A stretch of 64,000 bases of DNA from Phyllobates terribilis (lineage: Eukaryota), in NCBI RefSeq assembly GCF_046119375.1, contig NW_027362769.1:126976001-127040000 (forward strand), read 5' to 3'. Under the pieces are notes generated by a model that saw only the letters and a list, made by a program, of their open reading frames with translations, was not told the origin of the DNA and searched no databases. Below are positions 16,674 to 47,688 of this stretch, piece after piece (positions within the stretch are counted from its first letter, which is position 1; the number at the start of each line of letters is the position of its first letter). The translations under genes were made by a program, and so were the position numbers.

Positions 16674-16679
16674 AGCTAG

Positions 16680-19140: not shown

Positions 19141-19202
<62 letters not shown>

Positions 19203-19297
19203 TTATTTATTTATTCATTCAACTTTTACATTTAAAAATTACAAAAATGAAAATGGTCCAATGCAAAAGTTTGGGCACCCTGCGTGGTTAGTACCTA
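19009..19297 (+). mobile_element. Tc1-like terminal fragment containing a (TA)n microsatellite
   Basis: Tc1-type end ...CATGTAAAAGTTTGAGCACCC with an internal direct repeat AAAAGTTTGGGCACCC at about 19265; (TA)n at about 19150-19200. Confidence 0.6.
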
Positions 19298-19785: not shown

Positions 19786-22694
19786 GGACACACTGCTGGT
19801 GCAGTCGGTGCAGCTGCACCAGGGCCCAGAGGCAAGGGGGGCCCATGGATGTAGGGGCATACTGCTCATGACAGAAGACCATGCAACCGCTATGGGGCCT
19901 CTCAGTCAAGGGGCCCGATTTTGATTGACCCAATGTCACGCATAGTGTAGGAAAGACAAAGTGCAACACGAAGGGATGAGGGGAAGGGAGCCCAGACACT
20001 AAGGAAAGGGGAGATATCACCCTGTCTCCCCTACCATCCCTATATTGGTTCCTCACCAATCTCCGAACAGGAATCCTAAGTCCTGTCTTTCCCTAGAGCT
20101 TGGCCCTGGATAGGTAAGGGTGGGGATGAGCACTGGTCAGTCCCCACTAAACAACTAAAGACAAAAAGGAAAACAAACACAGGTGGAAGCAACTTAGCTT
20201 GAGCCGACTTCAGAGAGATTTAAGAAGTCGTCTGTAATGTCAAACAAAGTAACCTTCTGCAACCAGCTGCGGAACGACTGTCTGCTGCATCTGACACACC
20301 CGTGACACCCATCCACTCCCACCTGCCATACAGTGGTTTCAACATCCACTGTTAAAAAAAATGTCAATCTTTTAAGTACGAGTTTTACAGGATACCATTG
20401 TATGGAATAATGCAGCGTACTACAATATTCCATACTTTAATTTGTAGAATTCTACCAGATACAAGATGGTATCGATACCAGACATATAATGTAATATAAT
20501 ATAATATATACTTGGTTGGGCTCTGCCAGTTCCATCATTAATCACGTAACCACGAGGATGCACTTTGCACACTTGCTGTCATGTGCCAACTAGAGAGTCA
20601 GCCACGTCCTACAGTGTTCTAGTCACTGACACTAGCTGTCACTTGACTGCAAGTATGATTGTGCTGGAACCAGCAGAACCGAATCCTAACGGAGATATAC
20701 ACTGCTCAAAAAAATAAAGGGAACACTCAAATAACACATCCTAGATCTGAATGAATGAAATATTCTCATTGAATATTTTGTTATGTACAGAGTTGAATGT
20801 GCTGACAACAAAATCACACAAAAATCATCAATGGAAATCAAATTCATTAACCAATGGAGGCCTGGATTTGAAGTAACCCCCAAAATTAAAGTGGAAAAAC
20901 ACACTACAGGCTGATCCAACTTTGATGTAATGTCCTTAAAACAATTGAGGCTCAGTACCGTGTGTGGCCACCACGTGCCTGTATGACCTCCCTACAACGC
21001 CTGGGCATGCTCCTGATGAGGTTGCGGATGGTCTCCTGTGGGATCTCCTCCCAGACCTGGACTAAAGCATCCGCCAACTCCTGGACAGTCTGTGGTGCAA
21101 CATGACGTTGGTGGATGGAGCGAGACATGATGTCCCAGATGTGCTCAATCGGACTCAGGTCTGGGGAATGGGCGGGCCAGTGCATAGCTTCAATGCCTTC
21201 ATCTTGCAGGAGCTGCTGACACACTCCAGCCACATGAGGTCTGGCATTGTCCTGCATTAGGAGGAACCCAGGGCCAACCGCACCAGCATGTGGTCTCACA
21301 AGGGGTCTGAGGATCTCATCTTGGTACCTAATGGCAGTCAGGCTACCTCTGGCGAGCACATGGAGGGCTGTGCGGCCCTCCAAAGAAATGCCACCCAACA
21401 CCATTACTGACCCACTGCCAAATCGATCATACTGAAGAATGTTGCAGGCAGCAGATCGCTCTCCATGGCATCTCCAGACTCTGTCACGTCTGTCACATGT
21501 GCTCAGTGTGAACCTGCTTTCATCTGTGAAGAGCACAGGGCGCTAGTGGCAACTTTGCCAATCCTGGTGTTCTGTGGCAAATGCCAAACGTCCTGCACGG
21601 TGTTGGGCTGTGAGCACAACCCCCATCTGTGGACGTCGGGCCCTCATACCAACCTCATGGAGTTGGTTTCTAACCGTTTGTGCAGACACATGTGTGGCAC
21701 CCCAGGGGTCTGGTTTCCACAGTAACGGCAATGTTATGTCTGAGAGCAGGTGGGAGGTCTCTTGGTCAGGGATCCTATGCATGCCACACCTCCTGCCCAG
21801 TCCTGGGAGGGGAAGAACTTCCCCTATATAAACCTGGGGCTGAGGCAGGGTTAGTGAGAAGAGTAGAGAGAAGAAGAGAAGCAGTAATAGGAAAGGAAGA
21901 CCAGGAGCTCTGTGGGAATCGTGCTAAGAAGAGGTCAGGGGCTGGTAGCTGTAGAGCTCGCCCTGATCGAAGCTTTCTCACCGGACCCGGAGTCCGAGGC
22001 TGTGGGGACTAACTTTGCCCCAGCAGCAGAATCCGTCAGGCAGGGGATTTCCGGTCCTCTGGCCAAGAAACCCGAAGGCACGGTCACACGCGTGGGACCA
22101 TCACCGCCGTCTTGGAGCGGAAGCAAATAGAAGGCCCCGAGTCACCGGCCATACGGGTGAGCACCACACGGTACACTCAGGGACGTGAGCTACTTTTACC
22201 CGCCTCTAGCAAGGTAGCCAGAAGAGTACAGTTAGTTGGGAAGGCCTACAGCTCCGCCTGGCCAGGGGAAATCCCATCTGCTCAAGGACTGACCAGGCCC
22301 CATTCGCTAGCCAGTACTCCGGGAGGGTCTGTCTTTGTCACCAGTAAAGACCCTGAACTACACCGTACCGTCTCCGAGTGGTTCCTGCTACCCCCATCAT
22401 CCACGTCGGCTGCCCTGAGGCCATACCCCTCCCGTTGGGGGTTATACCATCTCCGCTGCACAACTGTGTCACCGGCCTCAGCGGTCTACCCTGCAGCGGC
22501 GGCTCCATAGCTGCATTCAACGGGTGGCGTAGTCGTCCAATATCTACTGCTACGTACACCGCCACTCAGTCTGACTCCCTGGGCACGGACCGGGTCACCG
22601 CCACAAGGACTACCACCCCTAATAGATCCGGCTCCGGGTAACCCCTGCGTGCGCAACGCTACATCAGAAAGCAGGCCCAGGGGCGCGTCAACTT

Positions 22695-22713
22695 TTGCCG
22701 TAGTCGGCAGGAT
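22695..22713 (+). promoter_or_regulatory. Primer-binding site (tRNA-Ser), one mismatch
   Basis: TGCCGTAGTCGGCAGGATT versus TGGCGTAGTCGGCAGGATT, the complement of the vertebrate tRNA-Ser(AGA/TGA) 3' end (recalled sequence). Confidence 0.8.
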
Positions 22714-23125
22714 TTCGTGCCCGCAACCACCGGGTACTGCGTGCCTGAAAAAGACTGTTCAAACTTACCAGTGGTGAAGATTCCCGCCATCCGGCGCCAT
22801 CTTCTACCTTCTTCCCGCCATCCGCGAAGTTTTCCCGCCATCCGGCGCCATCTTCTGCCTTCTTCCCGCCATCCGTGGAGTTTTCCTGCCGTTGGACGCC
22901 ATCTTGAGGACGCCGCGCGGGAAGAAGAGGGGCGTGGACTCCGAAAGCGCGCGAGAACTGAAGCCCCGCCTCACGTCCGGACGTTGCGTAAGGTCCTGGA
23001 AGGAGCCCAGCCGACGTCACAGGAGCGCGACGGAAGGTCCTCAACCCTGACGATCCACTGCGGAGCCGCGGCCTACGGAAGAGGATCATCGCAAGGTAGG
23101 CCACGGTCCACTAGGGGGGAGAAGG

Positions 23126-24106
23126 ATGTCGGATACGGAGGAGAGCTTCACCGCTCCAACCCCCGCCAGCGCCACCGCTGTTGCGGTCATGCCTTTCACC
23201 ATGCCCTATATCCCGGGGGCAGCCTGGCTACCCCAGTACTCAGGGGAGTCACATACCCTGCATGACTTTAGAGAAAAGCTGGATAGCCTCTTCCAGGTGT
23301 ACCCCCTCACAGAAGAGCAAAAAGTGAGCATTCTGGTGGCCCAATTAACCGGGGCAGCCCAAAGGGAGGTAAAGTCCTGGCCACCTGGGGGGAGGACTGT
23401 CGCAGGGATACTAACCCGGCTGAGGGACACCTTTGATACCCACACCTCAGCCGAGATCAAGCTTAGATTCTACGGGTGCAAGCAGCGAGCACAAGAGAGT
23501 ATAAGGGACTATGCTCTGAACCTACAAGAGGCCCTGAGAGCCATTAAGCAGACCGACCCTGATGGTGTGGGAGACGAGGACAGGCTGTTGACTGAACAAT
23601 TTATAGAGGGTTTATATTGCAATGCCCACCGAACTCAGTTGCGGGCAATGGCCTTACAGGACCCTCATCTGGGATTTGCACAGTTCAAGGACAGAGCCAT
23701 CCGGGTGCTCCGAGAACCAGCACCAGGTGGCGTTGTGACCCACAGACGCCCCACTACCACTTATCACCAGGAGGCGGCGCCCTTGTCGGCAGGGCCTGTG
23801 GGAACTGATGCGCAGGCTTTGAGCAATGACCCGGCTCCAGACCTGCACCATCAGGTCCAAGAGCTAGCTAAAAGCGTTGCTGCGCTAACCAGAACTGTGC
23901 AGTCTTTACAGGTTTCCACTTCGGGGAAGATCCAGCTGGCATCCGGACCGGAGGACATCCCGTGGCGTCGACCAAGGAGGACCCCACCGGCCAGAGGAAG
24001 ACCCAGCGACCGATACAACGAGGACGGACAACCCATCTGCCGCCGCTGCAATCAACCCGGACATATGGCAAGGTACTGTCCTTTAAACTGGCCCAACCTA
24101 GGGTAG
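23126..24106 (+). CDS. gag: Gypsy Gag (capsid-like region + CCHC zinc knuckle), 326 aa
   Basis: ATG start; retrotransposon-gag-like QESIRDYALNLQ...LLTEQFIEGL; CRRCNQPGHMARYC knuckle. Confidence 0.92.
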   Translation: MSDTEESFTAPTPASATAVAVMPFTMPYIPGAAWLPQYSGESHTLHDFREKLDSLFQVYPLTEEQKVSILVAQLTGAAQREVKSWPPGGRTVAGILTRLRDTFDTHTSAEIKLRFYGCKQRAQESIRDYALNLQEALRAIKQTDPDGVGDEDRLLTEQFIEGLYCNAHRTQLRAMALQDPHLGFAQFKDRAIRVLREPAPGGVVTHRRPTTTYHQEAAPLSAGPVGTDAQALSNDPAPDLHHQVQELAKSVAALTRTVQSLQVSTSGKIQLASGPEDIPWRRPRRTPPARGRPSDRYNEDGQPICRRCNQPGHMARYCPLNWPNLG

Positions 24107-24122
24107 AGGGCCAACCCCTAGG
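24082..24122 (+). promoter_or_regulatory. -1 ribosomal frameshift signal between gag and pol
   Basis: T TTA AAC heptamer in the gag frame at 24082-88; 8-nt spacer; stem CCTAGGG (24097-103) / CCCTAGG (24116-122); pol is in the -1 frame. Confidence 0.8.
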
Positions 24123-27100
24123 AAAAAGATCATCAGGCCCATCGAACTGGCGTGACAAATACGTGGGAGGACGTCCAGTCTTGCCTGTGGTACTGGATGG
24201 CATTCCTATGAGTGCCCTACTGGACACCGGGTCACAGGTCACCACCATCCCGTACGTGCTCTTCAAGCAGTACTGGAATGACTCGGATATAACCCGCTAC
24301 CCTGTCGACGACTTGAGTATCATCGCCAGCAATGGTCAGCTCGTGCCACAGATCGGATTTAAAGAGGTGACCATTAAAATCGGTAGAGTCGAACTGGCAG
24401 CACAGGGACTGATCATTGTAGACATTGACAAACACGAGAGTCACCCAAAGATAACTCTAGGAACTAATGTGATTGAAAATTGTCTTGCAGAAGTGATTTT
24501 CATTTTACAGCAGGTTGCCAAGAACGCCAGCTCCGGCGAGCAGCGAGTGCTCCAGAAAGAGATCCGGGCACTGATGCGACAGCAACAGGTGGAACTCTCC
24601 GGTGGTGAGATTGGTAGCGTGAGAATGTGTGACCCTTTCCCTATTGCCATGCCCCCAAAAAGTGAAATGATGATTTGGTGCCGGGCAGCTATTGGTCTGA
24701 GAGGTAGAGATTACCAGGCAATGGTAGAACCAGTTTACTCAGACAGTAGGCCCACCATTTTGACAGCACGGGGGGTGGTCAATGTACGCCATGGGAGGGT
24801 GCCCGTTCGCGTAGTGAATATCGGGAAGAGGGAAGTGTACCTGCCCAGGTATGCCACGCTGGCCAAATTGTATACCATCAATCGAAATTCCATACAGTCC
24901 ATAGAACCCTTGCCTCCATCTTCTCCGGAGGAAGGTAACGGCTCTGAGAAAACAATGGAGGACTGGTGTCAGCAACTACATTTGGGTACTGACTCCACTC
25001 CCTCACACCAGAAACAGGGAGTCTATCGGGTGGTTCAAGAGTATGAGAGAGTGTTTAGTAAACACCCGTTAGACTTCGGGCGAGTCAAGGGGGTAGAACA
25101 CCACATCCCCACGGGAGATCATCCTCCCATAAAGGAGAGATACCGACCCGTACCCCCTGCACATTACCAACACGCCAAGGGGATGCTCAGAGACATGAAG
25201 GAGGCTGGGGTAATCAGGGATAGCTGTAGCCCCTGGGCAGCTCCACTAGTCTTGGTTAAAAAAAAAGACAACACCATGAGAATGTGTGTAGATTACCGGA
25301 AAATCAACCATATCACACACAAAGATGCGTACCCTTTACCAAGGATAGAGGAGTCTTTGGCTGCTTTAAGATCTGCTAATTTCTTCTCCACTTTGGATCT
25401 TACTAGCGGGTACTGGCAGGTTCCTGTAGCAGAGGCGGACCGGGAGAAGACCGCATTCACCACCCCGATGGGACTTAGCGAGTTTACCTGCATGCCGTTC
25501 GGACTCTGCAACGCACCAGGAACCTTCCAACGGTTGATGGAATGCTGTCTGGGACACCGAAACTTCGAGACGTTCCTGCTATACCTGGACGATGTCATCG
25601 TCTATTCCAAAACCTACGAGGATCACCTGAAACACCTGGCGGAAGTGTTCGAAGCTCTGGCAAACTACGGCCTAAAGGTGAAACCCTCCAAGTGTCACCT
25701 CCTGAAACCAAAGGTGCAGTACCTGGGACACGTGGTGAGCGCTGACGGAGTGGCTCCCGACCCTGATAAGATCACCGCAATTAAGGAATGCCAAGTCCCT
25801 CCAGTGTAAAGGAAGTGCGGCAGTTCCTAGGGTTGGTAGGCTACTACCGCAGATTCATTCCCGGTTTCACCAAAAAGGCAGCTCCTATGCAGGACCTCCT
25901 GATAGGCCAGTCCCGGAAGGCCAAGAACCAGAAGCCGCCCTTCAGATGGGAGAAGTTAGAAGAAGAGTCCTTTCGCCAGCTGAAGATGGCCCTCACGGGG
26001 GATGAAATCCTGGCATACCCTGATTACAGCCAGCCCTTTATCCTCTACACCGACGCCAGTAACATTGGGCTAGGAGCCGTACTGTCCCAGACCCAGCAGG
26101 GGAAAGAATGGGTAATTGCTTACGCCAGCCGAAAACTGAGACCCACCGAAAGAAACCCTGAGAATTACAGCTCATTCAAGCTGGAGTTCCTGGCAGTGGT
26201 GTGGGCAGTCACCGAACGCTTTAAGCACTACCTCGCCTCTTCCCGGTTCACCGTGTACACGGATAACAACCCGTTGACGCATCTGGACACGGCAAGGCTC
26301 GGTGCCCTGGAGCAGAGATGGATGGCCCGCCTGTCCAACTATGAGTTCACAATCAAATACCGGGCAGGACGCTCCAATACCAACGCGGACGCCCTGTCTA
26401 GGATGCCAAACCTACCAGACGAGGGTGAGGATTCAGAAGATTTGGAAGAGGTCGAACTCCCTGCGTTCCACCGTCATGGGACTGTCCAGTATTCCCACCG
26501 TGTAAGGGGTAAGCAAGCCGCTACGTTCAACCCCTTACCTCACTACAACTGGGCGGAAACGCAAGACAGTGACCCTGCCGTCCGGCTGGTGAAGGAGATG
26601 CTGACTCAGCCAGAAGCTCGCCTTGACCCGGACGCTCCGGAGGAGACCAAGCAACTGTGGGCTGAGAAGAGTCGACTGTTCATTTACAAGGGGAAGTTGT
26701 GCCGCAGAATGGTTAACTCCCGGACGCATGAACTGGTCTGGCAAGTAGTGGTGCCAAGAAGGGACGCAGCTATGGTGATGGAGGCATACCACGACGGGGC
26801 TGGGCACTTCGGATGGACGAAGCTGGAGTTCCTGCTGCGCGGGCGGTTCCATTGGGTAGGCATGAGAGGAACCATCGAGAGGTGGAGCAGAGACTGTGGC
26901 CCATGCAACCTAAGAAGGAAGGACCGTGCCAGCCAGAAGACCCCCCTTCAGTCCATCGTCACCCGGCAGCCGTTGGAACTGGTGGCCTTGGATCATGTAA
27001 AACTGACCCCAAGCAGAAGTGGCTACGTCTACGCATTAACCATCGTGGACCACTACTCCCGGTTCTTGGTTGTCGTCCCCGTCAAGGACTTAACGGCTCA

Positions 27101-28217
27101 AACAGCAGCTAGAGCCTTCCAGCAGCACTTCTGCCGTCCACACGGCTACCCAGAGCAGGTGCTGACGGACCAGGGACCTGCCTTTGAAGCGGAGGTCTTC
27201 CAAGAGTTCTGTACTCTGTATGGCTGCCGGAAGATCAGGATGACACCCTATCATCCGCAAACTAATGGACTTTGTGAGAAAATGAACCAGGTAGTGATAG
27301 ATCTTCTAAAAACATTGCCCCTGGAAGAACGCAGTCTGTGGCCTGAGAAGCTGCCCGACCTGGTGGACCTATACAACTACATCCCTGTAGGTTCCACCAA
27401 CTGTACCCCGGCTTACCTAATGAGGGCAAGGCCTGGTAAGCTACCTGTTGACCTGGAGATGGGAGTCCTGACACCCGAGGACACTTCACCGGAAGCAGAC
27501 TGGGACACAGAGAGGCAGCAGCAGTACCGGAAAGTACAGGAGAGCGTGGAGCGAAGTCTCTGTCTGGCTAGGGAAAGACAAGAGAAAACTTACAACCAGT
27601 ATGCTCCCGCTGTTCCCCTGGTACCCGGAGAGCAGGTGTTGAAGAGGAAGAGACGGCTCCACAAGTTGGACGACCAGTGGGAGAAGGACCCGTACACCGT
27701 ACTGCCCTCAAGCCACGACAACCCAAAGGTTTGTACCATCAGTAAAGACGGAGGGGAAACCACAGCCATTGTATCCCGGGATCACCTGAAGAAGTGTCCC
27801 GAACAGCTACGGAACCCAGAAGGGGAACAAAAAGACCCTCGACCCGTAGAGGAAAGGGAAGATATGGTTAGTACTGTGCTCGGAGACTTCCCTCGGTCCT
27901 GGACTCAAGTCAATGGTGCAGTTGTGGTACCCGTCCTCACGTTCCTCCAACCAGCATCCCAAGTGCCTACGGAGCAACAGGTAGAGCTGGGAGAGCAGCC
28001 GGTCCAGGAGGCAAGGGACTCCACCCAAGCAGAACAGGAGGATCAACCCTCTGCTTATAGTGAGCCTGCCGTACCCCTAGTGAGCCAAAGAGCCCATAGA
28101 CAGCTGCCCAGTTTACCCTTGACAGCTCCTACACCCTGTAGTTCAGGGCCAGACAGTCAGCTCCGTAGGTCCACTAGGGCCACTAGAGGCCAGTTACCCG
28201 CACGTTGGAGGATTTGA
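24082..28217 (+). pseudogene. pol: Gypsy Pol (protease, RT, RNase H, integrase) with one frameshift near 25788
   Basis: LLDTGSQ (PR); YLDDVIVYS (RT); YTDASNIGLGAVL (RH); HHCC and DDE (INT). ORFs 23962-25809 and 25788-28217 are joined by an apparent 1-bp deletion (GAATGCCA where KEWP would need GAATGGCCA). Confidence 0.9.
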
Positions 28218-30158
28218 AGTGTTTAAATTGTTTTATTTGTGGTCACCTGTCTGTTACTTGTAAATAATTATGTGTTTCTAGTTATTTTTAGGAGTCCTTG
28301 GTGGATTTACCGGGAATCCTTGTACAATTGGTTGGAGCGTAACCTAGGAATGGACTAAAGACTGTTAAGGACTCGGGGCAGGACAGACCCCTACCTGGTT
28401 ACGTCTCCCTGTTTGGTGAAATGGACACCTTGCTTTTCTTCCAAAACTGCACCCGGTTGCGGATACGCCGTAACCATCTTTATGTGTTTTTCTTATTGTA
28501 TTATTATTGTTTATACCTTGTTATGTTTTTCTAAAAATATGTTTAGTCCCGGAGTACTAAATTTCACTAGGGGGGAATGTGGCACCCCAGGGGTCTGGTT
28601 TCCACAGTAACGGCAATGTTATGTCTGAGAGCAGGTGGGAGGTCTCTTGGTCAGGGATCCTATGCATGCCACACCTCCTGCCCAGTCCTGGGAGGGGAAG
28701 AACTTCCCCTATATAAACCTGGGGCTGAGGCAGGGTTAGTGAGAAGAGTAGAGAGAAGAAGAGAAGCAGTAATAGGAAAGGAAGACCAGGAGCTCTGTGG
28801 GAATCGTGCTAAGAAGAGGTCAGGGGCTGGTAGCTGTAGAGCTCGCCCTGATCGAAGCTTTGTCACCGGACCCGGAGTCCGAGGCTGTGGGGACTAACTT
28901 TGCTCCAGCAGCAGAATCCGTCAGGCAGGGGATTTCCGGTCCTCTGGCCAAGAAACCCGAAGGCACGGTCACACGCGTGGGACCAGCACCGCCGTCTTGG
29001 AGCGGAAGCAAATAGAAGGCCCCAAGTCACCGGCCATACGGGTGAGCACCACACGGTACACTCAGGGACGTGGGCTACTTTTACCCGCCTCTAGCAAGGT
29101 AGCCAGAAGAGTACAGTTAGTTTGGAAGGCCTACAGCTCCGCCTGGCCAGGGGAAATCCCATCTGCTCAAGGACTGACCAGGCCCCATTCGCTAGCCAGT
29201 ACTCCGGGAGGGTCTGTCTTTGTCACCAGTAAAGACCCTGAACTACACCGTACCGTCTCAGAGTGGTTCCTGCTACCCCCATCATCCACGTCGGCTGCCC
29301 TGAGGCCATACCCCTCCCGTTGGGGGTTATACCATCTCCGCTGCAGAACTGTGTCACCGGCCTCAGCGGTCTACCCTGCAGCGGCGGCTCCATAGCTGCA
29401 TTCAACGGGTGGCGTAGTCGTCCAATATCTACTGCTACGTACACCGCCACTCAGTCTGACTCCCTGGGCACGGACCGGGTCACCGCCACAAGGACTACCA
29501 CCCCTAATAGATCCGGCTCCGGGTAACCCCTGCGTGCGCAACGCTACATCAGAAAGCAGGCCCAGGGGCGCGTCACATGCACATTTGTGGCCTGCTAGAG
29601 GTCATTTTGCAGGGCTCTGGCAGTGCTCCTCCTGTTCCTCCTTGCACAAAGGAGGAGGTAACGGTCCTGCTGCTGGGTTGTTGTCCTCCTATGGCTCCCT
29701 CCACATCTCCTGGTATCTGCTCCATGCTCTGGACACTGTGCTGACAGACACAGCTACCCTTCTTGCCACAGCTCGCACTGATGTGCCATCCTGGATGAAC
29801 TGCACTACCTGAGCAACTTCTGTGGGTTGTACTGTAGACACCGCCTCATGCTACTGTACGTCTAGGGGTGAGAGCAATGGCAAAATGAAAAAGTGACCAA
29901 AACATCAGCCAAAAAGGATGAGAACAGAGAAATGGTCTGTGGTCACCACCTGCAGAACCACTCCTTTATAGGTGGTATCTTGATATTTGCCTATCATTTC
30001 TACCAGTTGTCTGTTCCATTTGCACAACAGCAGGAGAAATTGATTCACAATCAGTGTTGCTTCATAACTGGACAGGTAGATTTCACAGAAGTGTTATTGA
30101 CTTGGAGTTACATTGTGTTGTTTAAGTGTTCCCTTTATTTTTTTGAGCAGTGTATATA

Positions 30159-31795: not shown

Positions 31796-32099
31796 TATGT
31801 AGTAGTGGCTAGGCCTGAGGTGGTCAGCGTTTTGGCGCATATCCTACCTCCTCCGAGGATTGCTGGATGTTTTCCTGCTACTATCCCAGTTCTATGACTC
31901 CCGTTAAAACAAAGCTTCAGGTGATAAATGATGGATGAGGTGGTGGCAAAGGAGAAAGAGCAGGAGGAACAGGGACCATTCACATCAATATCAGGCCAGT
32001 CAACCACATATGTCTTGTAGGATATCTTTCTGCAACAAAAGGAGCGGTTCGGCTACACAGTTATAGAGCATTCAGTGAATGCAATGCCTACCAAAAATT

Positions 32100-35600: not shown

Positions 35601-35820
35601 TTTGCTTATGCCTTCCAAGCAAAAGCTGACAAAAATAAGGACGGAGGAACTTTTAATAATGGCAACACGGACCACGGTCACCCTGGTGGTATAGTGGTTG
35701 TGGAGGCTGAGGATAAGGAGAAGAACATAAAACAGCCAAAATGAGGAAGCGTATACCCATGTGTGGGTGTGAAGCGGTGCATGTGAATACACCTCCCGAA
35801 ATAACACAGTGGATTTGACT

Positions 35821-38800
35821 TTATGTTACTCTGCTGTCATTTGGTGGTGATGAGAAGTCTGGCCCAATCCAGCCCTTGTTCATTTTGATAAGGGTCAGCT
35901 TGTCAGCATTGTCAGTTGACAGGCGAGTTCGCTTATCAGTTATAATTCCCCCAGCGGCACTAAAAACATGCTCCGATAACACGCTAGCGGCAGGGCAGGC
36001 CAGGACCTCCAAGGCGTACAGAGCAAGTTCATTCCAAGTGTCCAGCTTGGATACCCAATAATTAAAAGGCACAGAGGAATCACGAAGGATGCTGGTACGG
36101 TCGGCAAAGTACTCCCTCACCATCTTTTGAAACTTTCCACTCCTTGCGAGAGTACCCCACGCCTCAGGGTCTGTCCGAAGGGAGGGTCTGAGAAAACTGT
36201 TCCAGAACATTGACAGTGTTCCCCTGCCTCTGCTGGATTGGAGTTGCGACTCTCCTGTACACCTTGGTTGGGCAACGAACTGTGACCTCTGCCGCTAGCG
36301 TGTTCAGATGGGAATTTTTTTAACAGTTCTACAGCAAGGGCCTTCTGGTACTGCCCCATTTTTGTAGACCTCTCCACCTCAGGAATAAGAGAGTGAAAGT
36401 TCTCCTTGGAGCGGGGGTCTAAAAGTGTCACCAACCAGTAATGACTGTCACCCATCATTTTGACAACGCGAGGGTCACGGTTAAGGCAATGTAACATAAA
36501 GTCAGCCATGCGTACCAGACTGGTAATGGGCAAGACTTCCGTGTCCTCACCAAGATAACGACTGACCATGCTGTCCTCCGTCCTCCTCCCACCTGTCCTC
36601 AGGCCAGCCATGCTGAACCGACGGTATGACAGTTGTACAGGTACTACCGTCTACAGTGCATGATACAAGCTCCTGTTCTTCCTCCTCCTCCTCCTCTCCC
36701 TGATTGTCCCCCAATGCACGTTGGGATGAGATGAGGCTGGGCTGTGTGTAATCGCCCGCTACGGCTTCTTGATCCATCTCATCATACTCTGGCTGCAATG
36801 CCTCCTCTTTAATTCTCTGCAGAGAGCGTTGCAAAAGACAGACAAGTGGAATGCTGATGCTAATGATGGCGTCATCGCCACTCACCATCTTGGTGGACTC
36901 CTCAAAGTTTGTCAGGATGGTACATATGTCAGACATCCAGGTCCACTCCTGAGGTCTTATGTGTGGAGTCTGAACTGAATGCCGATGGCATTGTTGATGC
37001 TGGTACTCCACAATGCTCTCTTCTGCTCACAAATCCTTTGCAACATGTGGAGGGTAGAGTTCCAACGTGTGGGGACATCACACACCAGTCGGTGTGACGG
37101 AAGCTGCAAACGCTGCTGCAACACAGGAAGGGCGGCGGAAGCTGTAGCCGACTTCCGAAAATGAGCTGACAGGCGGCGTACTTTGATGAGCAGATCTGGC
37201 AACTCGGGGTACGATTTAAGAAACCGCTGAACCACGAGGTTAAGCACATGAGCCAGCCATGGTACGTGTGTGATCTCGCCTCGCCTCAGAGCCGCCACCA
37301 GGTTGCGGCCATTGTCACACACGACCATGCCTGGATGTAGGTTCAGCGGTCTCAGCCACAGATCTGCCTGCTCTTTCATAGCTGTCCACAACTCACAAGC
37401 AGTGTGAGGCTTATCACCTAAGCTTATGAGTTTCAGCACAGCCTGTTGCCGCTTGGCTGAGGCAGTACTGCAGTGCTTCCAGCTTGTAACTGATGTGGTG
37501 ATATCTGAGATGGAGGCTGAACATGAGGAGGAGGAGGAGGATGCACAGGAGCTGCCTAAAAGGCAGCATTTCCAACGCAAGCAGTCGTGAAATGTGCGAA
37601 TTTAAGGGTCTGTGGGGCGTTGGCTGCGAATTTGCGCTTTCATTCAAAGGTCTGCGATATGGACAATTGAACGCTGCGGTGGGACGTGGACGTGGACGTT
37701 GATGCTGTTTCTTGAGAAACTGCCATAACAAGTGAAGACTGAGAGGAGGGGGCATCTTTGCATGCAGTATGGACAGGGGATTGCCTTGCACGCACAACAG
37801 GGGTTTCTCTTACATGCACAACAGCGGAAGAAGCAGTGGCGACACCCGCTGACACTGGTCATGGACCCTGGGGTTCGCCCCACAAAGTCGGGTGCTTTGC
37901 TGACATGTGCCTGATCATGCTGGTGGTGGTCAGGCTGGTAGTTTTGTCACCCCTGCTGATGCTGGCCTGGCAGGTGGTACAAATGGCCTTTTTGTGGTTA
38001 TCAGCAGAGTCTTTAAAAAAATTCCAGACTCTGGAAGACCTACCGGTTGTACTGGCAACGTCCCTCGTGTTGGTGTTACGGGGAACGGTTGCCCGCCTTC
38101 TGTCTGCGGCCACCACACTGCTTCTTCCAGCCTGTTGGGGTACTCTGCCTCCCTCCCCCTGTGTGCTGCTGGCCTCGCTCTGCGTGTCCTCCTGCCACGT
38201 TGGGTCAGTTACTAGATCATCCACCACCTCCTCCTCTTCCACTTCCGCACCACGATCCTCCTCCTCACTTCGTGGCAATTGTGTCTCGTCATCGTCCACC
38301 TCTTGTGACAAATTGCCAGCGTCGCCTTCCTGTGGCCGTGGCTGTTCAAATATTTGGCCATCGCTACATGGAATCTCCTCTTCCACCACTTCAAGCGGAG
38401 CAGGCGAGGGGCCCAAATATGGAAATGGACCAGTGAACAGCTCTTCAGAGTGTCCAAGTGTGGGATCAGTTGCTGTCTGACGACACTCGGCATGGTGGGA
38501 GGAAGGAGCATCAGGGTGAGGAGGAGTATGCGGTCGAAACTCAAAGCTACTAACACTTGACCGTGTGGAAGACAGACCGGAGGTGGTGGTGCCCAGGTGA
38601 CTGGAAGTATTATCTGCTATCCAATTAATAACCTGTTCACACTGATCAGTTCGCAATACTGGTGTTGTTATGTGCTTGTCAGGAAACAACACCCACTTTT
38701 GGGTCAGACCTTGCCGCTCTCTGTCGCCCCCTTATCCTGCTGGTCAAACACGGTATTGACCGAGGATAAGCACGGGTGCAGCTGCTCTAATTTATGTCGA

Positions 38801-40007
38801 CTATTGCGTCACGTGATGTGACAGGACATATATATACCACCAGTTCCTTCCAGGAACGTATATATACCTCCGACCAGCCACCCTCAAACCACAATATCAC
38901 ATAAATACTGGTATACTGCCACCACCGATCTCTTAACAGGTGGATCGGGTACCCGTTAGGTAACGTGAATTAGCGGGTGAGGAACGTGTTTGCTCGATAT
39001 AGGACAAGAAGAACGAAACTGGTAAATAATAATGATTTACTCCCGAAAGGGCAGTGTTTACAAAATATATACAAGATATTATAAAAGAGACAATTTACAT
39101 ATATGCATAAAACAGTTATTAAAATAAAAGGGATAAGTAATAGCAAAACCTGCTTCACAAGGTGATGGTCTCAGATTCTGTGGGGGGGACGGCTCCCCGG
39201 AAATTAGATGTGATTCTTCCACGCAGCGTGTAGGGCATGCGTCTGACGTCCCTGAGAAGAATCTGCTGGTTTATGGCCGTTCTGGTTTTTAGTATGGGGC
39301 CAAAACACCAGGAGACACCCATATCGCTTACCTCACACGGGGGCTCGGTTTTGTGAACCCACCCAGCTGCATAAGACATAAAAATCCTCCATCTTTCATA
39401 TCTTGGTGTGGGGGTGTCCCACATCCAAGATGGAGACATCATGTTTGCCGTCACTAATATTCATGCGGATGGCTATCAAATATGATATCTCTATGACGCT
39501 CAGAAGCTAAGAAACCATTTCCCACGTTTCCGGCGGTTTCCCAGCCATGCAAGATATACCAATGTAACTGGAAAAAAGTGAGCATTCCAAAAATGTGGTC
39601 CCTGGGTTTATGACAGTCATGTGCCTTATTAAATTCTACATTAATTGTACAAACTTTTAAACAATAGGATTTTTGGAGGGAAAGATCCAGGGTATACCAG
39701 TATACTTGCTCTGGGCTGAGGTTTTATGGCGTCATAAAAATTCCTGAGGGTTGGGGGAAGCTACAGTGAGTCCTATGTCTTACAAATGGACAGAGGGGTG
39801 GAAATTTAGGACATCTCTCATTTTTAAAACTAGGACAAAAATACATATTGCCTGACAGTGCTTCCCTAGTAATTCGGTCAAGAACTGGGAGCGAGAAGAT
39901 GTGGCTGTTGGTTGCGGCACATTTTCACCTTGGCCACGGCCCCGTCCTCTGCACACACCGTCACCAGAACGTCCAGTTCCACGTCCCTTGCCACGCGCCT
40001 TGCCCAT
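35821..40007 (-). pseudogene. hAT transposase: BED zinc finger, catalytic core, dimerisation domain; interrupted
   Basis: BED finger (VWNFF...AICTTC...SMIRHMSAKH); CDNGRN, HVLNLVV, CDVPTRWNSTLHML; dimerisation YWVSKLDTWNELA...PAASVLSEHVFS; split by solo LTR 38677-39857, an internal deletion near 37555 and frameshifts. Confidence 0.9.
38677..39857. mobile_element. Solo LTR (1181 bp) inserted in the hAT transposase
   Basis: Perfect terminal inverted repeat TGTCAGG / CCTGACA; 5-bp TSD GTGCT (38672-76, 39858-62); removing it restores the frame ELLGKH|ITTPVLRTDQ. Confidence 0.88.
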
Positions 40008-43000
40008 TGTAAATTAACTAAAATAGCTTACACTCGCACTATCAATGGCAAAAGGGTAATAAAAAGGAAATTAGAACCGTGGAAGAGGAAAACCACAGTT
40101 CTAGTTCTCTGGCCTACACCGGAATCTTTTAAACAGATATATTTGTGTCTGAACAGTCAGCGAGACACTCAAACTGTTTTTTTATGTAAAAAAGGCAAAA
40201 AAGTGGGTAATACAGAGATTTGAACCGTGGAACTGCAAAACCACAGTTCTAGTTATCCAGCCGAAACCAGACTCGTTTAAACAGATATATTTGTGTCTGA
40301 ACACTCACAGACACACACAATTTTTTTTTTTTTTTTGGGGGGGGAGAATACCAAAAGGTTAATGAGACAGGTATTTGTACAGTCTGACTGAGAGAAAAAA
40401 AAAAGAGGATTTAGATGAAAAAAAAAGGATTTTTCCTGGCCCCTGAGACCGGGAGCTAAGTCTAGTAATTTGACCAGCAGCAGCACACAGGACTGTAATG
40501 CAGTGTTTGTTGGTATAACCATTGCGTCTCCTATACAGCCTGCCTGCTTGATATCTGGGATGGATATTAGTCCTCAGAAGGACTGTTTGTTTGATTTGGC
40601 AGGCTTTATAGACCCTACACTACCTATTTTGCACTATATATCTCTCCCTAACTCAGCAACACTGATCCTACACTGTCTGATCCCGGGCGACTGTGTCCAA
40701 GATGGCGGCGCACGGTTTTAAATACTCGAGGTGACGCTGTGCGTCCAGCCAATCACTGTAATGCCCACAACATGGCTGCGGCATTACAGTGACTGGCTGG
40801 CAATCCCTGCATGTTCATTGGCTCTGTAAAGAGCGCCAAACATGCAGAGCGGAGACCGGAGCTCCCGCCCGAGTAACCCAGAAATGCTCGGTGCTCGCCG
40901 AACATCCCGAGTAGTGAGATGCTCGGGCGAGTACCGAGCAGTGTCGAGCATGCTCGCTCAACACTAGTGAATATCCATTGTACAATCTCCTGAAAGCGCA
41001 GACCCAGAAACGAATGGGAGAAATTCAGGAGGCCATTAAAACACTACAGATGGCAATGAGCTTACCGGGAATGAAAAAGGCCGGATCTTCTCTAAAGGCA
41101 AAAGGAAGAAAAGTAGAAATCGGAGCAAGTGACCGAGTGTCCATCTTCCTGGAGCTCGTCGATTGTCATAGCATGAACGGGGAGCAGGTAACGGAGGGAA
41201 AGCGTCCACTCACTCCGGTCCCATCACTACTAGAGAACTTGGTATCTTGTTTGTAAGAAATATACTTTGCTATCATTTACATACGGACGTATAAAGCCGC
41301 CTTTACAGTTACATGTCAGGTTTGCAATTGCATAGAAAACATCACTCCTCTCTGTAATCCGGTAATAAGAACTGTATACCTGCAGAGTATTAGTAAAAAG
41401 GGATTTATTGGCACATTTAAAGAGTAAAAAATAAAATGTATATGTGACGCGCCCCCTGGGCCATATTCTTTTAGGGGGAATATCCGGAGCCGGATCAGAT
41501 GGGGGTTGTAGTCTTCCGAGTGGCTGTGACCCGGTCCGTGCCCAGGGTGTCAAACTCAGTTGTATGTGGCAGTCATACAGATGTTATAAGTTCTTTATTG
41601 TCGACTACGCCACCCGTTGTGTTGCGGTCACTGTGGCCGCCGCTGCAGCAGGGTCCGCTGAGGCTGGTGGTGTAGGTGCAGCTTTGGTGATATAACCCCC
41701 AACGGGTGGGGTATAGCCTCAGGGGGATCAGGTGCAGAGGATGGGAGTTGTGGTGATGCAGTGTAGACGGCAATCAGAGACAGAGTCGGGTTATGCAGTT
41801 TAGGATGTTTTACTCACTGCTGATGTTCTGGTCACTCCAGCTTCGAGTGACCTCCCGAGCCGTGCTGCGTCCACCAGGTTCTGGATCCAGCCAACTCCCA
41901 AATAAGTCCGGAGCGTGACCCTGAGCTCTCCTTCAGTCCTTTCTCTGGCCGTCCCCACTATTGATCCACCCAGGTCCAGCTCCCTCGGGCCTTCTGTTGG
42001 GACACCCTTGGCCTTGGGTTCCCTGACCCTCCTCGTGGTATGCCTTCGTGGTGGATGTGGTGGGTGACCGTGGCAAACGCTGCCCACGGTCTCCGGTCTC
42101 TGGCTGGGGAGTGTTTTTACCCCCACCAGCTTGGGTTCCGGTACCCTGTGCCGACTCTTCACCCGGGGATTTAAGTTGGGTTCTTGGAGTCCTTTTCTTC
42201 TGGTTCCCCCTCTGGGTCTCTCTCTCTCCTCTCTCACTCTGGGTCTCTCTTCTCCTCTGCTCCTGACTTTCTCTCTGCAACTGACCCTGTTCTTAGTTGG
42301 TGCCCACCTTATATACACCCTCTATGTGTGAGCTCAGGTGACCAGCACCCAATGAGCTCCTATCTTTACCCAGGCTGCTCCCCCTATCTGCCCCTACACT
42401 ACTTGGGATGTTCCACCCCCCTCCCACTCCAGCCAGGAACAGACTCGGTCGTACCTGCACATTTCTAAGTGGGAGTACCGTCGGTCTGCTCCTCGGAAAT
42501 GGGATGTGTGTAGTGCATGCAGCCTACCGAGCTCAGTTCCACACTCCATCCTTACCTGGGAGTGGAATATCACACCTCTGGGTTGAGGTGCAATACCCCT
42601 GTAGCAGCCGAATCCTCAGGGTGCTACATTCCCCCCTGGTAAATCACAGCACGTCCTCGGGCTGTAAGACAAAAACATCACAAAACATACAAAATTTTTC
42701 ATAAACATATAAAACATATAAAACATATAAAACATTATATAAGTTAGCAGCATCAATAAAACTTTTTATAATAAACATTCTCGTCGTCTCTTGTTCCTCC
42801 TCCGGTCACTGTGCAACGTGTGACCGGGTAAAGTGCGACAGTCTCTCTGGAAAACTGGTTTTCCCTATAAAACCGGTAGGGGGCGCTTTAGGACGCGCAA
42901 CTATATACAGGGGATATGGCCGCTCTCAGTCCTCGGCCAGTTAGGGAGGGAAAGGGAATGGCTGCTCACAGTCCTCAGCCTGTGGGATTAAGGGTAAGCG

Positions 43001-43103
43001 GGTAAACAGTTCCCTCAGCTGGTCCCAACGGGGACTATATTTGCAGTAACAGTTTCTTTATACCCCGATCGGGTAACTATTTACAGCATCTACTCCGCTG
43101 TAC

Positions 43104-44870
43104 TCAACAACGTCTTCCTCCTGCTCTTTCTTTGGGGATCTCAGCTTCAGACCCGTCCGGATCCTCTTGCTCTTCCTCCTCACATCGCAGCTCCTCCTCT
43201 GTCAGGCGATGCACCTGGAGGGCGTAAGGTCCTTTAGCACACTTGTGCCGGGTGAAGGTGACCTCGTCCCCGATATAAAGGTCACGACCTCTGTGCCCCT
43301 CCGGCAGATGGGACTCCACATCTCTGCGCGTGACAAAGACGTCGCCGGGGGTGTTGTGGTCTCTGATGAAGCCCCACCCATGCTGCATGTTGAACTTAAT
43401 TACAGTCCCGGTGGTGCGGGGACTGTGCGCTGCACGGGGGTCCCTCCTGGTTCGGCTCTTCTGCTCGGCGCTCCTTACTTGAGCCTGTTGTTCCCGGACC
43501 CGCCTCTCTCTCCGCTCCCTCGCAAACTCCTCGAGCTGCTGTCGGCAGCACTCAGCACGCTCCGCTGCAGCTGCCCTGGTTTCTTGAGTGAACCCCATTA
43601 GGTCTTCTCCGGTGGGGTCCCACTCAAATTGGGTCTCTTCAAGCGGGGGCGAGATCCTTATCACGGGCTTCGGAGCCGGAATCAGGGGTGCACACATGGC
43701 CCCAACTCTCCTCTGGTGCTCCAGTTCATAATATTTCTGGGGCCAGATGAAAGGCTGCCCGTCCGGCCACGTGTGCTGGGCAAACAAGTCCTCTCCCAGA
43801 CGCGGCACCCTTGGTTTTACGGGTGCGGGCGCGGTGGTGGTGGCGCCCGGGTTGCCCAGGCCTTGCGGCCAGGCCTGGGGCACCTGGAAGGTGAAGGGCA
43901 CCGTCAGGACGGCGGCGCCCTGGGCTACCTGGCCTTGCGGCCAGGCCGGAGGCTCCGCGGAGGTAGGGGGCGCTGTTGGTGATGCGACGCCCGGGAATTC
44001 TAGGCCCTGCGACCAGGCTGGTGGTACTTCCTGCTTGGTCACGCTCGGGGTCGAGGCGTGTGACGTCACAGGGGTCGCGGCTGCGGCTTCCGGTTGAGGC
44101 CTAGTCTGTGGCGGTGACATGGCGTTTTCGGGCACAGCAGGGGGACTTTCGGGCTCTGCGACGGGGAGCTGGGGCAGGTAAGCGGTGTCCTGGTTTGGGG
44201 TATAGACGTCCCCTTTACCTGTCTCCATGCGTTCGGCTCCCTTCTCGGCGCCGTCTCCGGCCTTGGGTCCTCCCGCGCCATCCTCAGAGGCGGTCTGTCT
44301 CCTCATCTTGGCTGGCGTGCTCCGGGTCTTGGTTTGCTGGGCCATCTCTCGGCTCCACTCCGCCAATGTCTCTCGCTGTACCCGGGCCATCCTCCGTGCG
44401 AGGCCCTCCAGGGCAGTCTGTGCACACTCCCGGTCTCGGGGGAGCTGTGCTAGGACCTCCACTAAGCCTAGTGGGGTCGTGGTTTCCAGCAGGCTCCTGA
44501 CCAACGGGTCGGTGCTGCTCTGCTCTTCTTCCAGCAGGCTCCTGGCCAGCGGGCCGGTGCTGCTCTGCTCTCTGGACATCTCCGGGTGAGCTTCTCTGCT
44601 CCTCCTCTCCAGGCTTCTTGCCTCCGGGTGCGCTCGCTCCAGACTGCTCCAGGCGGCACCCATCTTTGTTCTCTCCTTTCGTCTCCTCCCCCTTCGAGGG
44701 CGGTCCCGGGGCCACTTGGTGACTGTCAGCTCCAGGGGCTGTTCTTTCACGCTGACAGACACCTCTAGCATCACAGTCTCTGTTGGTGGGGGCGGTTCCC
44801 ACTTTTGGCGCCATTTTCGGTCCTGGCCCACGATGGGAGGTGGCCTCTTGCCATCCTCTGGCACGCCCAT
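43104..44870 (-). CDS. 588-aa (from ATG 44870; up to 680 aa from ATG 45146) low-complexity protein with a C-terminal cold-shock (OB-fold) domain
   Basis: Uninterrupted ORF. CSD at about 43203-43415: TGTVIKFNMQHGWGFI (RNP1-like)...DVFV (RNP2-like)...GDEVTF...KGPYALQV. Upstream are Pro/Ala-rich and E/R-rich coiled-coil-like segments. ATG 44870 has A at -3 and G at +4. Confidence 0.82.
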   Translation of the reverse strand: MGVPEDGKRPPPIVGQDRKWRQKWEPPPPTETVMLEVSVSVKEQPLELTVTKWPRDRPRRGRRRKERTKMGAAWSSLERAHPEARSLERRSREAHPEMSREQSSTGPLARSLLEEEQSSTDPLVRSLLETTTPLGLVEVLAQLPRDRECAQTALEGLARRMARVQRETLAEWSREMAQQTKTRSTPAKMRRQTASEDGAGGPKAGDGAEKGAERMETGKGDVYTPNQDTAYLPQLPVAEPESPPAVPENAMSPPQTRPQPEAAAATPVTSHASTPSVTKQEVPPAWSQGLEFPGVASPTAPPTSAEPPAWPQGQVAQGAAVLTVPFTFQVPQAWPQGLGNPGATTTAPAPVKPRVPRLGEDLFAQHTWPDGQPFIWPQKYYELEHQRRVGAMCAPLIPAPKPVIRISPPLEETQFEWDPTGEDLMGFTQETRAAAAERAECCRQQLEEFARERRERRVREQQAQVRSAEQKSRTRRDPRAAHSPRTTGTVIKFNMQHGWGFIRDHNTPGDVFVTRRDVESHLPEGHRGRDLYIGDEVTFTRHKCAKGPYALQVHRLTEEELRCEEEEQEDPDGSEAEIPKERAGGRRC

Positions 44871-45103
44871 AATGGCGTCCGCTCTGACAAGGCGGGAAAC
44901 CTTTGGAAATGGCGGGAATCGCTTCCCAGTGGCGGGAAACTCTGCAGATGGCGGGAAAAAGCTGTTAATGGCGGACAACCGGCGGGAATCGACTGGTGAT
45001 GGGGTCCGATGGCGGGGACCCTCCAGAACCGGCAGGAGACTTCTTTTTGAGGTAAACTCGCACTTTTCTTCAGGCACGCAGTACCCGGGTGTTGTGGGCA
45101 CGT

Positions 45104-45122
45104 AATCCTGCCGACTACGCCA
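45104..45122 (-). promoter_or_regulatory. Primer-binding site, perfect 19-nt tRNA-Ser complement
   Basis: TGGCGTAGTCGGCAGGATT, 4 nt from the 5' LTR end. Confidence 0.9.
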
Positions 45123-47688
45123 AAGTTGACGCGCCCCCTGGGCCATATTCTTTTAGGGGGAATATCCGGAGCCGGATCAGATGGGGGTTGTAGTCTTCCG
45201 AGTGGCTGTGACCCGGTCCGTGCCCAGGGTGTCAAACTCAGTTGTATGTGGCAGTCATACAGATGTTATAAGTTCTTTATTGTCGACTACGCCACCCGTT
45301 GTGTTGCGGTCACTGTGGCCGCCGCTGCAGCAGGGTCCGCTGAGGCTGGTGGTGTAGGTGCAGCTTTGGTGATATAACCCCCAACGGGTGGGGTATAGCC
45401 TCAGGGGGATCAGGTGCAGAGGATGGGAGTTGTGGTGATGCAGTGTAGACGGCAATCAGAGACAGAGTCGGGTTATGCAGTTTAGGATGTTTTACTCACT
45501 GCTGATGTTCTGGTCACTCCAGCTTCGAGTGACCTCCCGAGCCGTGCTGCGTCCACCAGGTTCTGGATCCAGCCAACTCCCAAATAAGTCCGGAGCGTGA
45601 CCCTGAGCTCTCCTTCAGTCCTTTCTCTGGCCGTCCCCACTATTGATCCACCCAGGTCCAGCTCCCTCGGGCCTTCTGTTGGGACACCCTTGGCCTTGGG
45701 TTCCCTGACCCTCCTCGTGGTATGCCTTCGTGGTGGATGTGGTGGGTGACCGTGGCAAACGCTGCCCACGGTCTCCGGTCTCTGGCTGGGGAGTGTTTTT
45801 ACCCCCACCAGCTTGGGTTCCGGTACCCTGTGCCGACTCTTCACCCGGGGATTTAAGTTGGGTTCTTGGAGTCCTTTTCTTCTGGTTCCCCCTCTGGGTC
45901 TCTCTCTCTCCTCTCTCACTCTGGGTCTCTCTTCTCCTCTGCTCCTGACTTTCTCTCTGCAACTGACCCTGTTCTTAGTTGGTGCCCACCTTATATACAC
46001 CCTCTATGTGTGAGCTCAGGTGACCAGCACCCAATGAGCTCCTATCTTTACCCAGGCTGCTCCCCCTATCTGCCCCTACACTACTTGGGATGTTCCACCC
46101 CCCTCCCACTCCAGCCAGGAACAGACTCGGTCGTACCTGCACATTTCTAAGTGGGAGTACCGTCGGTCTGCTCCTCGGAAATGGGATGTGTGTAGTGCAT
46201 GCAGCCTACCGAGCTCAGTTCCACACTCCATCCTTACCTGGGAGTGGAATATCACACCTCTGGGTTGAGGTGCAATACCCCTGTAGCAGCCGAATCCTCA
46301 GGGTGCTACATATGTTTTAGGCCTTTTAATTCTGAGCAGATTGGTGAGGGACTGAGTCCTGAGACCCCCACACATCATTCAATAGGGTTGTGTGCTCAGT
46401 CAGGGGGTTGTGCGCTCAGCCGGGGTGGGGGGGGGGGTGTTTACGATCTGGCAGTAGTTCTGTGCTCCTATGACTTTTTAATTAATCCATACTCTGCTGT
46501 GCACTTGCTCTCCTGTCACCTGAGCTGCACACTCTTAAAAGTTTTTTTAAGCAATTGGCGGGGGGTTTCAGGACCTGGACCCCCACCTATCTGCTCAGAT
46601 TTAAAGGGCGTAAAATATGTATAAAAAATTTACAAAAGTTTCTTTACACTTTAAATGTAAGATCCCCACAATCATAGATCATAAAAATGGAGAAAGTGTT
46701 TCAGCTCTGCAGTCCCTCTAAACTCTTTCCCTGCACCGCTGAAACTGGCCACCACTGTTTAGAGTAACATATTGATTGCTGAGGGTCCAACCGTTAGTAC
46801 CCCCCACTCATCCAGAGAACGGGGAAATGGCCTCTTCATTCTCATTCACAGTCTTCTGTGATGGTGCCAGAGGTCGGACCCCCATATCTTGCTCATAGTG
46901 GTCATTATTATTGCCTTGCAGTCGGCCGACTGTGGCCACGGGTGCCGGATTATCAGATCTCCCCCAGGAGCTGCACTCTGAAAGCTGTTTTTTCTTAGGA
47001 GACAACCACCTTTAATTTCCAGAATATTTTTCTTCTAGCGAGTGTGTTGCATCTGTCCTGCCTCTTATAATAAATCTTTTCCACTTTCCCTTTTATATCT
47101 ACAGCACGAAGCTGCCAAAGTCTTACAAGATGCAATCAATGAATTCTCCGGGACAGCGGAGGAGCTGCGCCTCATGATAGCCAACGCTGAGCTGGCCCTG
47201 TCTCACGGGGACGTGGAACGAGCTTTGTCCATGCTCCGAAATGTTTCTCCAGAGCAGCCATATTTTGTCCAGACCAAGGAGAAAATGGCTGAGGTATATC
47301 TCCAGCACAGGAAAGATAAGAAGCTCTATATCGGCTGCTACAGGTGACATACAGGAAAATGTTCGCCGCGTGTCTCTCATGCATTTGTTACAGGGGTCTT
47401 CCATTCACCACTCATCCAGTAAACTACTTTTAAGCCACAAAAGTGAGGGGTTTATTGCTTATAGCACCCGTAATGTGCCAGCACTGATAACAGAGGCGTC
47501 AGGATAATGAAAACGTTCCAGAGAATGCTATCTTAGCAAGGAAATTAGTGATATAAGGTGGCAAAAAACACCCGTGAACACCATTACTCGGTATAAGATT
47601 TCTCTAGTATGCAAAGCTAAATTTTTATTTTGCAGAGATCCAATATGAAGAATCAAGTGAGATGATTCTATTACTGCAGCCACTAGAG

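Follow-up and report, generated by a model that had tools for sequence, protein, structure and literature searches.

What does a long terminal repeat (LTR) retrotransposon that carries neither gag nor pol gain from encoding a cold-shock-domain (CSD) protein? The question is raised by an element on the reverse strand of a 64,000-nt stretch of the Phyllobates terribilis genome (assembly GCF_046119375.1, contig NW_027362769.1, positions 126,976,001 to 127,040,000; hereafter the window). By structure it is an LTR retrotransposon, in which direct LTRs, TG...CA ends, a target-site duplication (TSD), a primer-binding site (PBS) and a polypurine tract (PPT) are all present (Table 1). A sequence-only reading of the window had described identical 1184-bp LTRs, a TATG TSD, a tRNA-Ser PBS and a PPT; all of these features were located, and the LTR pair aligned with 0 mismatches across 1184 bp. 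The PBS was assigned to tRNA-Ser through tRNA genes of other organisms, not the frog's own: its complement together with the tRNA T-loop motif corresponded to a tRNA-Ser gene in 14 of the 14 metagenome loci scanned (110 stretches found).

Table 1. Positions in the window of the CSD element, its parts and its neighbours (ORF, open reading frame; PR, protease; RT, reverse transcriptase; RH, RNase H; IN, integrase; dN/dS, ratio of nonsynonymous to synonymous substitution rates).
Feature	Position	Strand	Remarks
Element, LTR to LTR	41445..46310	-	4.87 kb, TG...CA ends
5′ LTR	45127..46310	-	1184 bp
3′ LTR	41445..42628	-	1184 bp, identical to 5′ LTR
TSD TATG, left	41441..41444	.	sequence
TSD TATG, right	46311..46314	.	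sequence
TATA-like box in 5′ LTR	45991-45997	-	sequence
Second PBS-like motif inside LTR, 11 nt	45284..45294, also 41602-41612	-	sequence
PBS, 18 nt, complementary to tRNA-Ser 3′ end	45105..45122	-	starts 4 nt past 5′ LTR
Leader common with autonomous Gypsy, five TTCCCGCC repeats	44891..45104	-	~72% identical
Single ORF	43104..45146	-	680 aa (ATG 45146) or 588 aa (ATG 44870)
N-terminal helical module, aa 230-276	44325..44465	-	dN/dS 0.21 for aa 211-260
Pro/Ala/Thr-rich linker, variable length, predicted disordered	43653..44324	-	prediction
45-residue charged helix directly ahead of CSD	43443..43577	-	dN/dS 0.10
CSD (PF00313), aa 581-648	43209..43412	-	Pfam, dN/dS 0.09
PPT (purine tract)	42629..42637	-	abuts 3′ LTR
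Neighbouring Ty3/Gypsy element, candidate helper group	21693..29575	+	gag, PR-RT-RH-IN
Host TTC21-like exon	40968..41187	+	element antisense in next intron

The encoded protein and the selection on it

The ORF is open from stop to stop over 682 aa (43104-45152), with its first ATG at 45146. The single uninterrupted frame that had been noticed therefore stands, with the refinement that it begins within the final 20 nt of the 5′ LTR; translation of the primer site and of the leader common to autonomous Gypsy elements accounts for its first ~110 aa. In 21 open copies the U5 start codon was ATG in 16 and CTG in 5, and the Met at 44870 is more widely kept, including in more distant subfamilies.

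At the end of the ORF, where a CSD had been proposed, Pfam identified one with 34.3 bits against a curated cut-off of 27 (E 2.2e-8), the sole domain above cut-off in the ORF, and the domain was found in 21 of 22 family members at E up to 0.5. AlphaFold2 predicted a five-strand barrel preceded by a 45-residue helix (mean pLDDT 80.9), and a fold search with the predicted barrel returned CspA, YBX1 and YBX2 as best matches (E about 1e-6). A conserved W..xDLMGF motif precedes the 45-residue helix. Outside the CSD, the whole-protein structure prediction gave two helices and disorder in the remainder; the N-terminal helical module is kept in families A and C (see below) and in Ranitomeya and Anomaloglossus proteins, and had no match in the ESM Atlas. 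A homodimer prediction for helix plus CSD scored 0.00 and was counted neither way.

Pfam detected no Gag, PR, RT, RH or IN in any of the 22 members, as the sequence-only reading had held for the window copy. The ORF showed no Gag or Pol similarity to the proteins of the neighbouring Gypsy element by blastp and phmmer, hhalign gave a probability of 0.2% against the neighbour's Gag, and a search of a viral fold library found no Gag-like fold for the ORF protein; the helices may nevertheless hold a very divergent Gag remnant. The element thus lacks the gag plus PR-RT-RH-IN set of an autonomous Ty3/Gypsy element. Derivation of the ORF from a Gypsy integrase tail or Gag was rejected for want of a significant match, and so was a conserved upstream ORF in the autonomous leaders, where the equivalent frame closes 21 codons past the PBS in 5 of 7. 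An Rfam scan gave a single match, at chance level.

Between the window subfamily and the P0001 subfamily (1 versus 11 copies), dN/dS fell from 1.03 in the leader through 0.3-0.4 in the middle to 0.07 in the helix and 0.06 in the CSD. All pairs of the 22 copies open from the PBS gave 0.10 for the helix and 0.09 for the CSD, against 1.4-2.5 in the two shifted frames. Since pairs are not independent, informative sites were also counted once each; they fell at third positions in 49 of 77 cases in the helix (p 5e-8) and 48 of 71 in the CSD (p 4e-9), with no such excess in the N-terminal part (16/42 for aa 11-94, 25/72 for aa 95-190). Sixteen copies of family B and 19 of family C, chosen among good matches, gave a dN/dS of 0.16. 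Of the shared indels in the coding part, 22 of 34 had a length divisible by three, compared with 10/43 in the LTR and 17/79 in the 3′ untranslated region, and most exceptions in the coding part lay at two variable spots. The selected protein is aa ~191-682 (from about 44582), with a start that overlaps the RNA leader, and selection is strongest on helix and CSD.

The sequence-only reading had taken the long open ORF as a sign of selection. This survives in part: the frame-specific dN/dS of 0.09-0.10 on helix and CSD supports it for aa ~191-682, but length alone is not evidence, because the frame is also open over its first ~190 codons, where codon positions show no bias. The constraint was measured between mobile subfamilies with fresh LTR pairs and differing TSDs, which points to selection during replication and not at fixed loci; and as several young families without core genes keep the CSD at dN/dS near 0.1, replication of the element itself must benefit from the protein.

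The window CSD scores CspA about as well as YBX1, with a gap of one residue to YBX1 versus five to CspA, while for the Bufo protein and for a relic CSD (L157) YBX came first among PDB matches, gap-free through the long loop. Identity to Y-box CSDs is about 30-35%. Three aromatic positions of RNP1/RNP2 are retained, and the Trp and His of YBX1, which take part in RNA binding, are replaced. In a tree of 77 columns, a moderately supported branch set the 18 element-type CSDs apart (82/82; a second tree omitted 9 of 45 rows), the YBX rows being one decayed frog pseudogene and one unnamed protein; the approximately unbiased test rejected neither element+YBX (p 0.22) nor element+CSDE1 (p 0.37). The label 'Y-box-like' is favoured by best sequence matches and loop length, but the tree is compatible with either donor and Trp and His are lost; from the sequence comparisons a host Y-box gene is the likely donor.

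The ESM Atlas returned generic CSD clusters alone, below 0.9, a metagenome scan for relatives found none, and a CSD fused to a long polyprotein was seen in 0 of 8000 candidates of 962-2745 aa, a weak test; P0001 was the sole return of a companion polyprotein search. Side observations in the genome concern other CSD sequences: L157/L171 (G000:C4:791.48-791.52 Mb) is a relic CSD in ~3 local copies with the RNP2 His retained; L055 and L157 are older CSDs for which no flanking LTR pair was found; L147-L152 (G000:C1:734.44 Mb) are fragmented intronless CSDE1-like retrocopies; and L167 is a decayed YBX-like pseudogene. P0073 (252 aa) has a helix ahead of a long-loop CSD, a layout like that of the element proteins, and lies outside their branch.

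Copies, families and the candidate helper

A 36-base LTR-end/PBS pattern, with at most 1 mismatch allowed, matched 29,362 places in the 10.57-Gb genome and 0 in the control. The first 40 exact junction matches, all in the first 17 Mb of contig C1 and hence not a random sample, comprised 27 full CSD elements, 7 elements with gag or gag-pol, 4 CSD-deleted family copies, 1 interrupted and 1 unassigned. Twenty-three of the 27 full-CSD copies are open from the conserved Met through the CSD. Identity within LTR pairs ranges from 98.4 to 100% (median 99.8%, n=26), and a 4-bp TSD was present in 23 of 26 testable copies. Extrapolating 27/40 yields about 20,000 copies (15,000-23,500), or roughly 100 Mb; the 30,000-40,000 first-look candidates from protein searches should not be read as copy numbers, and a genome search with P0013 under a stricter first look gave nothing at E 1e-30. 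The deleted copies (L107, L114, L116, L129) are 4 of 31 evaluable A-type copies, the other 27 retaining the domain. With LTR pairs this similar and neither gag nor pol in the CSD copies, the earlier description of a young, non-autonomous element is borne out. A one-off capture of a processed host transcript is ruled out by copy number, diversity and purifying selection, and checks for disrupted ORFs, dN/dS near 1 or a missing CSD or OB-fold likewise gave no ground for abandoning the sequence-only reading.

Both LTRs were present in all of the 20 best DNA matches, which represent 13 separate insertions and 7 segmental duplicates. These 7 duplicates lie on contig C9 and carry the same flanks as the window, indicating an insertion later copied by segmental duplication. 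The TTC21-like region itself looks amplified (G000:C9:122-131 Mb), with the window's Gypsy gag matched 20 times on the same strand, and 7 of these matches have a CSD element 19.5 kb away with identical flanks; this is either an assembly artefact or an array of about 19 units that arose very recently.

Distant-homologue searches revealed at least three diverged CSD families in the genome, B and C being described from 40 loci chosen for open frames. Family B has LTRs of ~1025 bp with different ends and an unchanged PBS; family C is older, with LTRs of ~1250 bp and another Ser-type PBS, which we take to be that of the tRNA-Ser CGA isoacceptor. No gag or pol was found between the LTRs of families B and C wherever an LTR pair was recovered, several older loci giving no pair. 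Related annotated proteins occur in Ranitomeya variabilis, R. imitator, Anomaloglossus baeobatrachus and Bufo bufo, and they, too, presumably sit in LTR elements; Xenopus was not among the 17 relatives named, of 123 matches. The NCBI model of R3HCC1 (P0002) starts with a family-C helix and CSD piece, either an exonised element or an annotation error.

The Ty3/Gypsy neighbour has 998-bp LTRs with 9 mismatches, a gag with a CCHC knuckle and weak PNMA similarity, a pol split across two frames near 25785-25809 and a mismatch in the PBS; its family is young, with 123 gag matches at 97-100%. It has in common with the CSD element the LTR 3′ end, the PBS region, the leader repeats, the PPT and the 4-bp TSD, and from R through U5 to the leader the CSD element is 72-77% identical to autonomous copies. 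One deleted copy, L116, joins an autonomous-type leader to a CSD-family interior (86% over 871 nt). By its LTR ends, PBS, leader and TSD length the CSD element is a non-autonomous partner of Ty3/Gypsy. The gag-bearing, Ser-primed Ty3/Gypsy elements are, on this sequence kinship, its likely helpers, and from the dispersed young copies without pol we infer that it is mobilised in trans by Gypsy.

The 821-nt leader downstream of the TATA-like box contains 1 ATG versus 10 on the opposite strand, and in 36 copies the mean was 1.5 versus 11.0 antisense. Low synonymous divergence and no codon-position bias mark the shared part (44891..45104), a probable packaging signal. The leaders of the element (44891-44988) and of the Gypsy neighbour (22781-22870) each contain four to five TTCCCGCC repeats with a GCCAT motif close by; these resemble E2F and YY1 sites, and may instead be packaging repeats. 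The second PBS-like motif lies 152-178 nt ahead of the PBS and occurs in 39 of the 40 elements sampled, among them autonomous ones; in family C it is altered to fit that family's different PBS, and none was seen in family B. This pattern suggests an extra site for tRNA pairing, like that of a bipartite PBS, or a target of tRNA fragments. An AATAAA at 45276-45281 in the LTR of the window copy is not conserved across subfamilies, and as a polyadenylation signal it is therefore uncertain. Window positions 1-2060 hold a further rearranged Gypsy remnant, an LTR piece followed by an integrase ORF.

What the protein may do

CSDs are RNA chaperones, and the Y-box protein FRGY2 masks mRNA. The sequence-only reading had suggested packaging, masking or counter-silencing as roles of the protein, all of which are hypotheses. 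With middling confidence we propose that the element is a protein-coding satellite of Ser-tRNA-primed Ty3/Gypsy elements in hyloid frogs, whose protein would coat its own RNA and improve its survival or packaging. The LTR would drive transcription, and scanning along the AUG-poor leader of the resulting RNA would reach the ORF. The protein would bind single-stranded RNA through the CSD, preferring the RNA that encoded it, and coat it as Y-box proteins coat stored mRNA. Such coating could protect the RNA in germ cells and aid its competition for the Gag and Pol of autonomous elements, which would package, reverse-transcribe and integrate it. A cis preference would explain why a helper-dependent element keeps paying for the gene, and the few losses of the CSD are expected if the benefit falls in cis. 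Since a helper-dependent element can keep a gene under selection only if the copy that encodes it profits, and 27/31 copies keep the domain, RNA coating in cis is favoured. A bolder version, tentative and in our view rather doubtful, is that a lineage spanning poison frogs and toads swapped gag and pol for a captured Y-box CSD, disguises its RNA as masked maternal mRNA and out-competes its Gypsy helper.

Several observations weigh against the RNA-coating satellite. A near-identical full LTR was found in none of 8 autonomous elements compared. The replaced Trp and His belong to the binding face of YBX1, so that binding may differ, and the 40-element sample comes from one contig. The LTRs of the four CSD-deleted copies are 99.1-99.8% identical, which indicates that the domain may be dispensable for a single jump. 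Finally, the RNA runs cannot separate transcription of the element from read-through of many intronic copies: contigs from runs X1, X2 and X6 match the host exon and end at its splice sites, as RNA would, and they hold family sequence; they were not counted as expression, because read-through of thousands of intronic copies, or DNA, could yield the same.

The existence of young deleted copies would also fit a trans-acting counter-silencer or activator, which disrupts piRNA or Y-box repression, or binds LTR DNA, and raises expression across the Gypsy clan, the helper among them. Gypsy elements are both abundant and expressed in poison-frog ova (available part of PMC6278860), and the two conserved helices could serve as protein-interaction surfaces. 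Yet a shared product should let the deleted copies take over, which the 27/31 retaining the domain contradict, and searches with Pfam and the ESM Atlas, among others, found no similarity to known silencing suppressors; we regard this explanation as unlikely, though worth keeping in mind.

Less credit is due to a chaperone acting at the particle stage, where the protein would enter the helper particle and aid tRNA annealing, dimerisation or strand transfer, supplementing the nucleocapsid. CSDs melt RNA structure, YBX1 reportedly aids dengue virus assembly, and the subfamilies look mosaic in the alignment by eye, as after frequent template switching. However, the helper Gag already has a CCHC knuckle, and hhalign, Pfam and the viral fold search gave no Gag-like domain that could target the protein to particles, which makes this role improbable.

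Selection for the frog itself, through a domesticated family with a BHIKHARI-like developmental role and incidental mobility, is very unlikely. NCBI gene models for some copies, including the one joined to R3HCC1, and zebrafish BHIKHARI Gags, described as required for development (available part of PMC13269885), speak for it, but the constraint is seen in comparisons of mobile subfamilies, whose LTR pairs are fresh and whose TSDs differ. That the ORF has no protein function, being a captured fragment or a frame kept open by its youth, its G+C content or a need to avoid nonsense-mediated decay, fits the first ~190 codons but is hardly credible for the rest, since frame-specific dN/dS of 0.06-0.16 on helix and CSD in three families largely refutes it and 0 of 2000 order-2 Markov simulations with like composition reached an ORF of at least 588 aa.

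Relation to known systems and significance

To our knowledge, non-autonomous LTR elements are usually non-coding or Gag-only. Large retrotransposon derivatives (LARD) are likewise non-autonomous LTR elements, and together with terminal-repeat retrotransposons in miniature (TRIM), Cassandra, Helenus and Ajax they resemble the CSD element in keeping LTRs, PBS, PPT and TSD. Elements of the TRIM/LARD type encode no mobilisation protein, whereas the CSD element has a long ORF under purifying selection. The available part of PMC10886601 describes non-autonomous LTR elements moved in trans by Gypsy or Copia partners with a common PBS region, and defines TRIM as <1 kb. At 4.87 kb and with dN/dS of 0.09-0.10, the CSD element is neither TRIM nor LARD.

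BHIKHARI has no pol, and TR-GAG is a plant LTR element with a single Gag ORF. Both are like the CSD element in carrying one structural-type ORF (for BHIKHARI, available part of PMC13269885); their ORF is Gag, whereas that of the CSD element has no Gag similarity by profile, Pfam or fold. In frogs, 1A11 and Xretpos are LTR elements with an ORF and no pol, as is the CSD element. Xenopus laevis 1A11 encodes a 71-kDa protein, is expressed in the embryo and has 20-30 ORF copies; its ORF is described as Gag-like, with no CSD mentioned in the available part of the source (PMC4585706), so that it is set apart by description only and a relationship is possible. The element protein has the CSD fold in common with YBX1 and YBX2 (FRGY2), but it has no Y-box C-terminal tail, is intronless and lies inside a mobile element. 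LINE-1 ORF1p and the hepatitis delta antigen also combine a helical region with an RNA-binding module that coats their own RNA, and hepatitis delta, itself a satellite in need of a helper, has a single protein of this kind. The analogy is one of layout; folds and replication systems are unrelated, and cis preference and oligomerisation are hypothetical for the frog protein.

A full-text literature search found no published description of an LTR element carrying a CSD or Y-box protein; it did not cover the repeat libraries Repbase and Dfam. The terms 'cold shock' and 'Y-box' are absent from the available parts of three poison-frog genome papers, supplements aside (PMC6278860, 10.1101/2023.11.06.565769, PMC12208295), whose repeat libraries may hold CSD families unnamed. 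The CSD element is thus apparently an undescribed variant of non-autonomous LTR element, and a real one. Without pol, such elements would be left unclassified by homology-based repeat annotation; in a Phyllobates study 62.6% of reads were unclassified (available part of PMC12208295). Gene pipelines annotate copies as host genes, such as the 'Y-box-binding protein 2-A-like' of Bufo and the CSD joined to R3HCC1.

More generally, the locus makes testable how a retrotransposon parasite comes to use its helper and withstands RNA control in the germline. CSD elements outnumber the helper in the 40-element sample, and one family makes up about 1% of the 10.6-Gb genome. If a captured Y-box domain did replace gag and pol in this lineage, it would represent a new non-autonomous strategy and a contributor to poison-frog genome gigantism.

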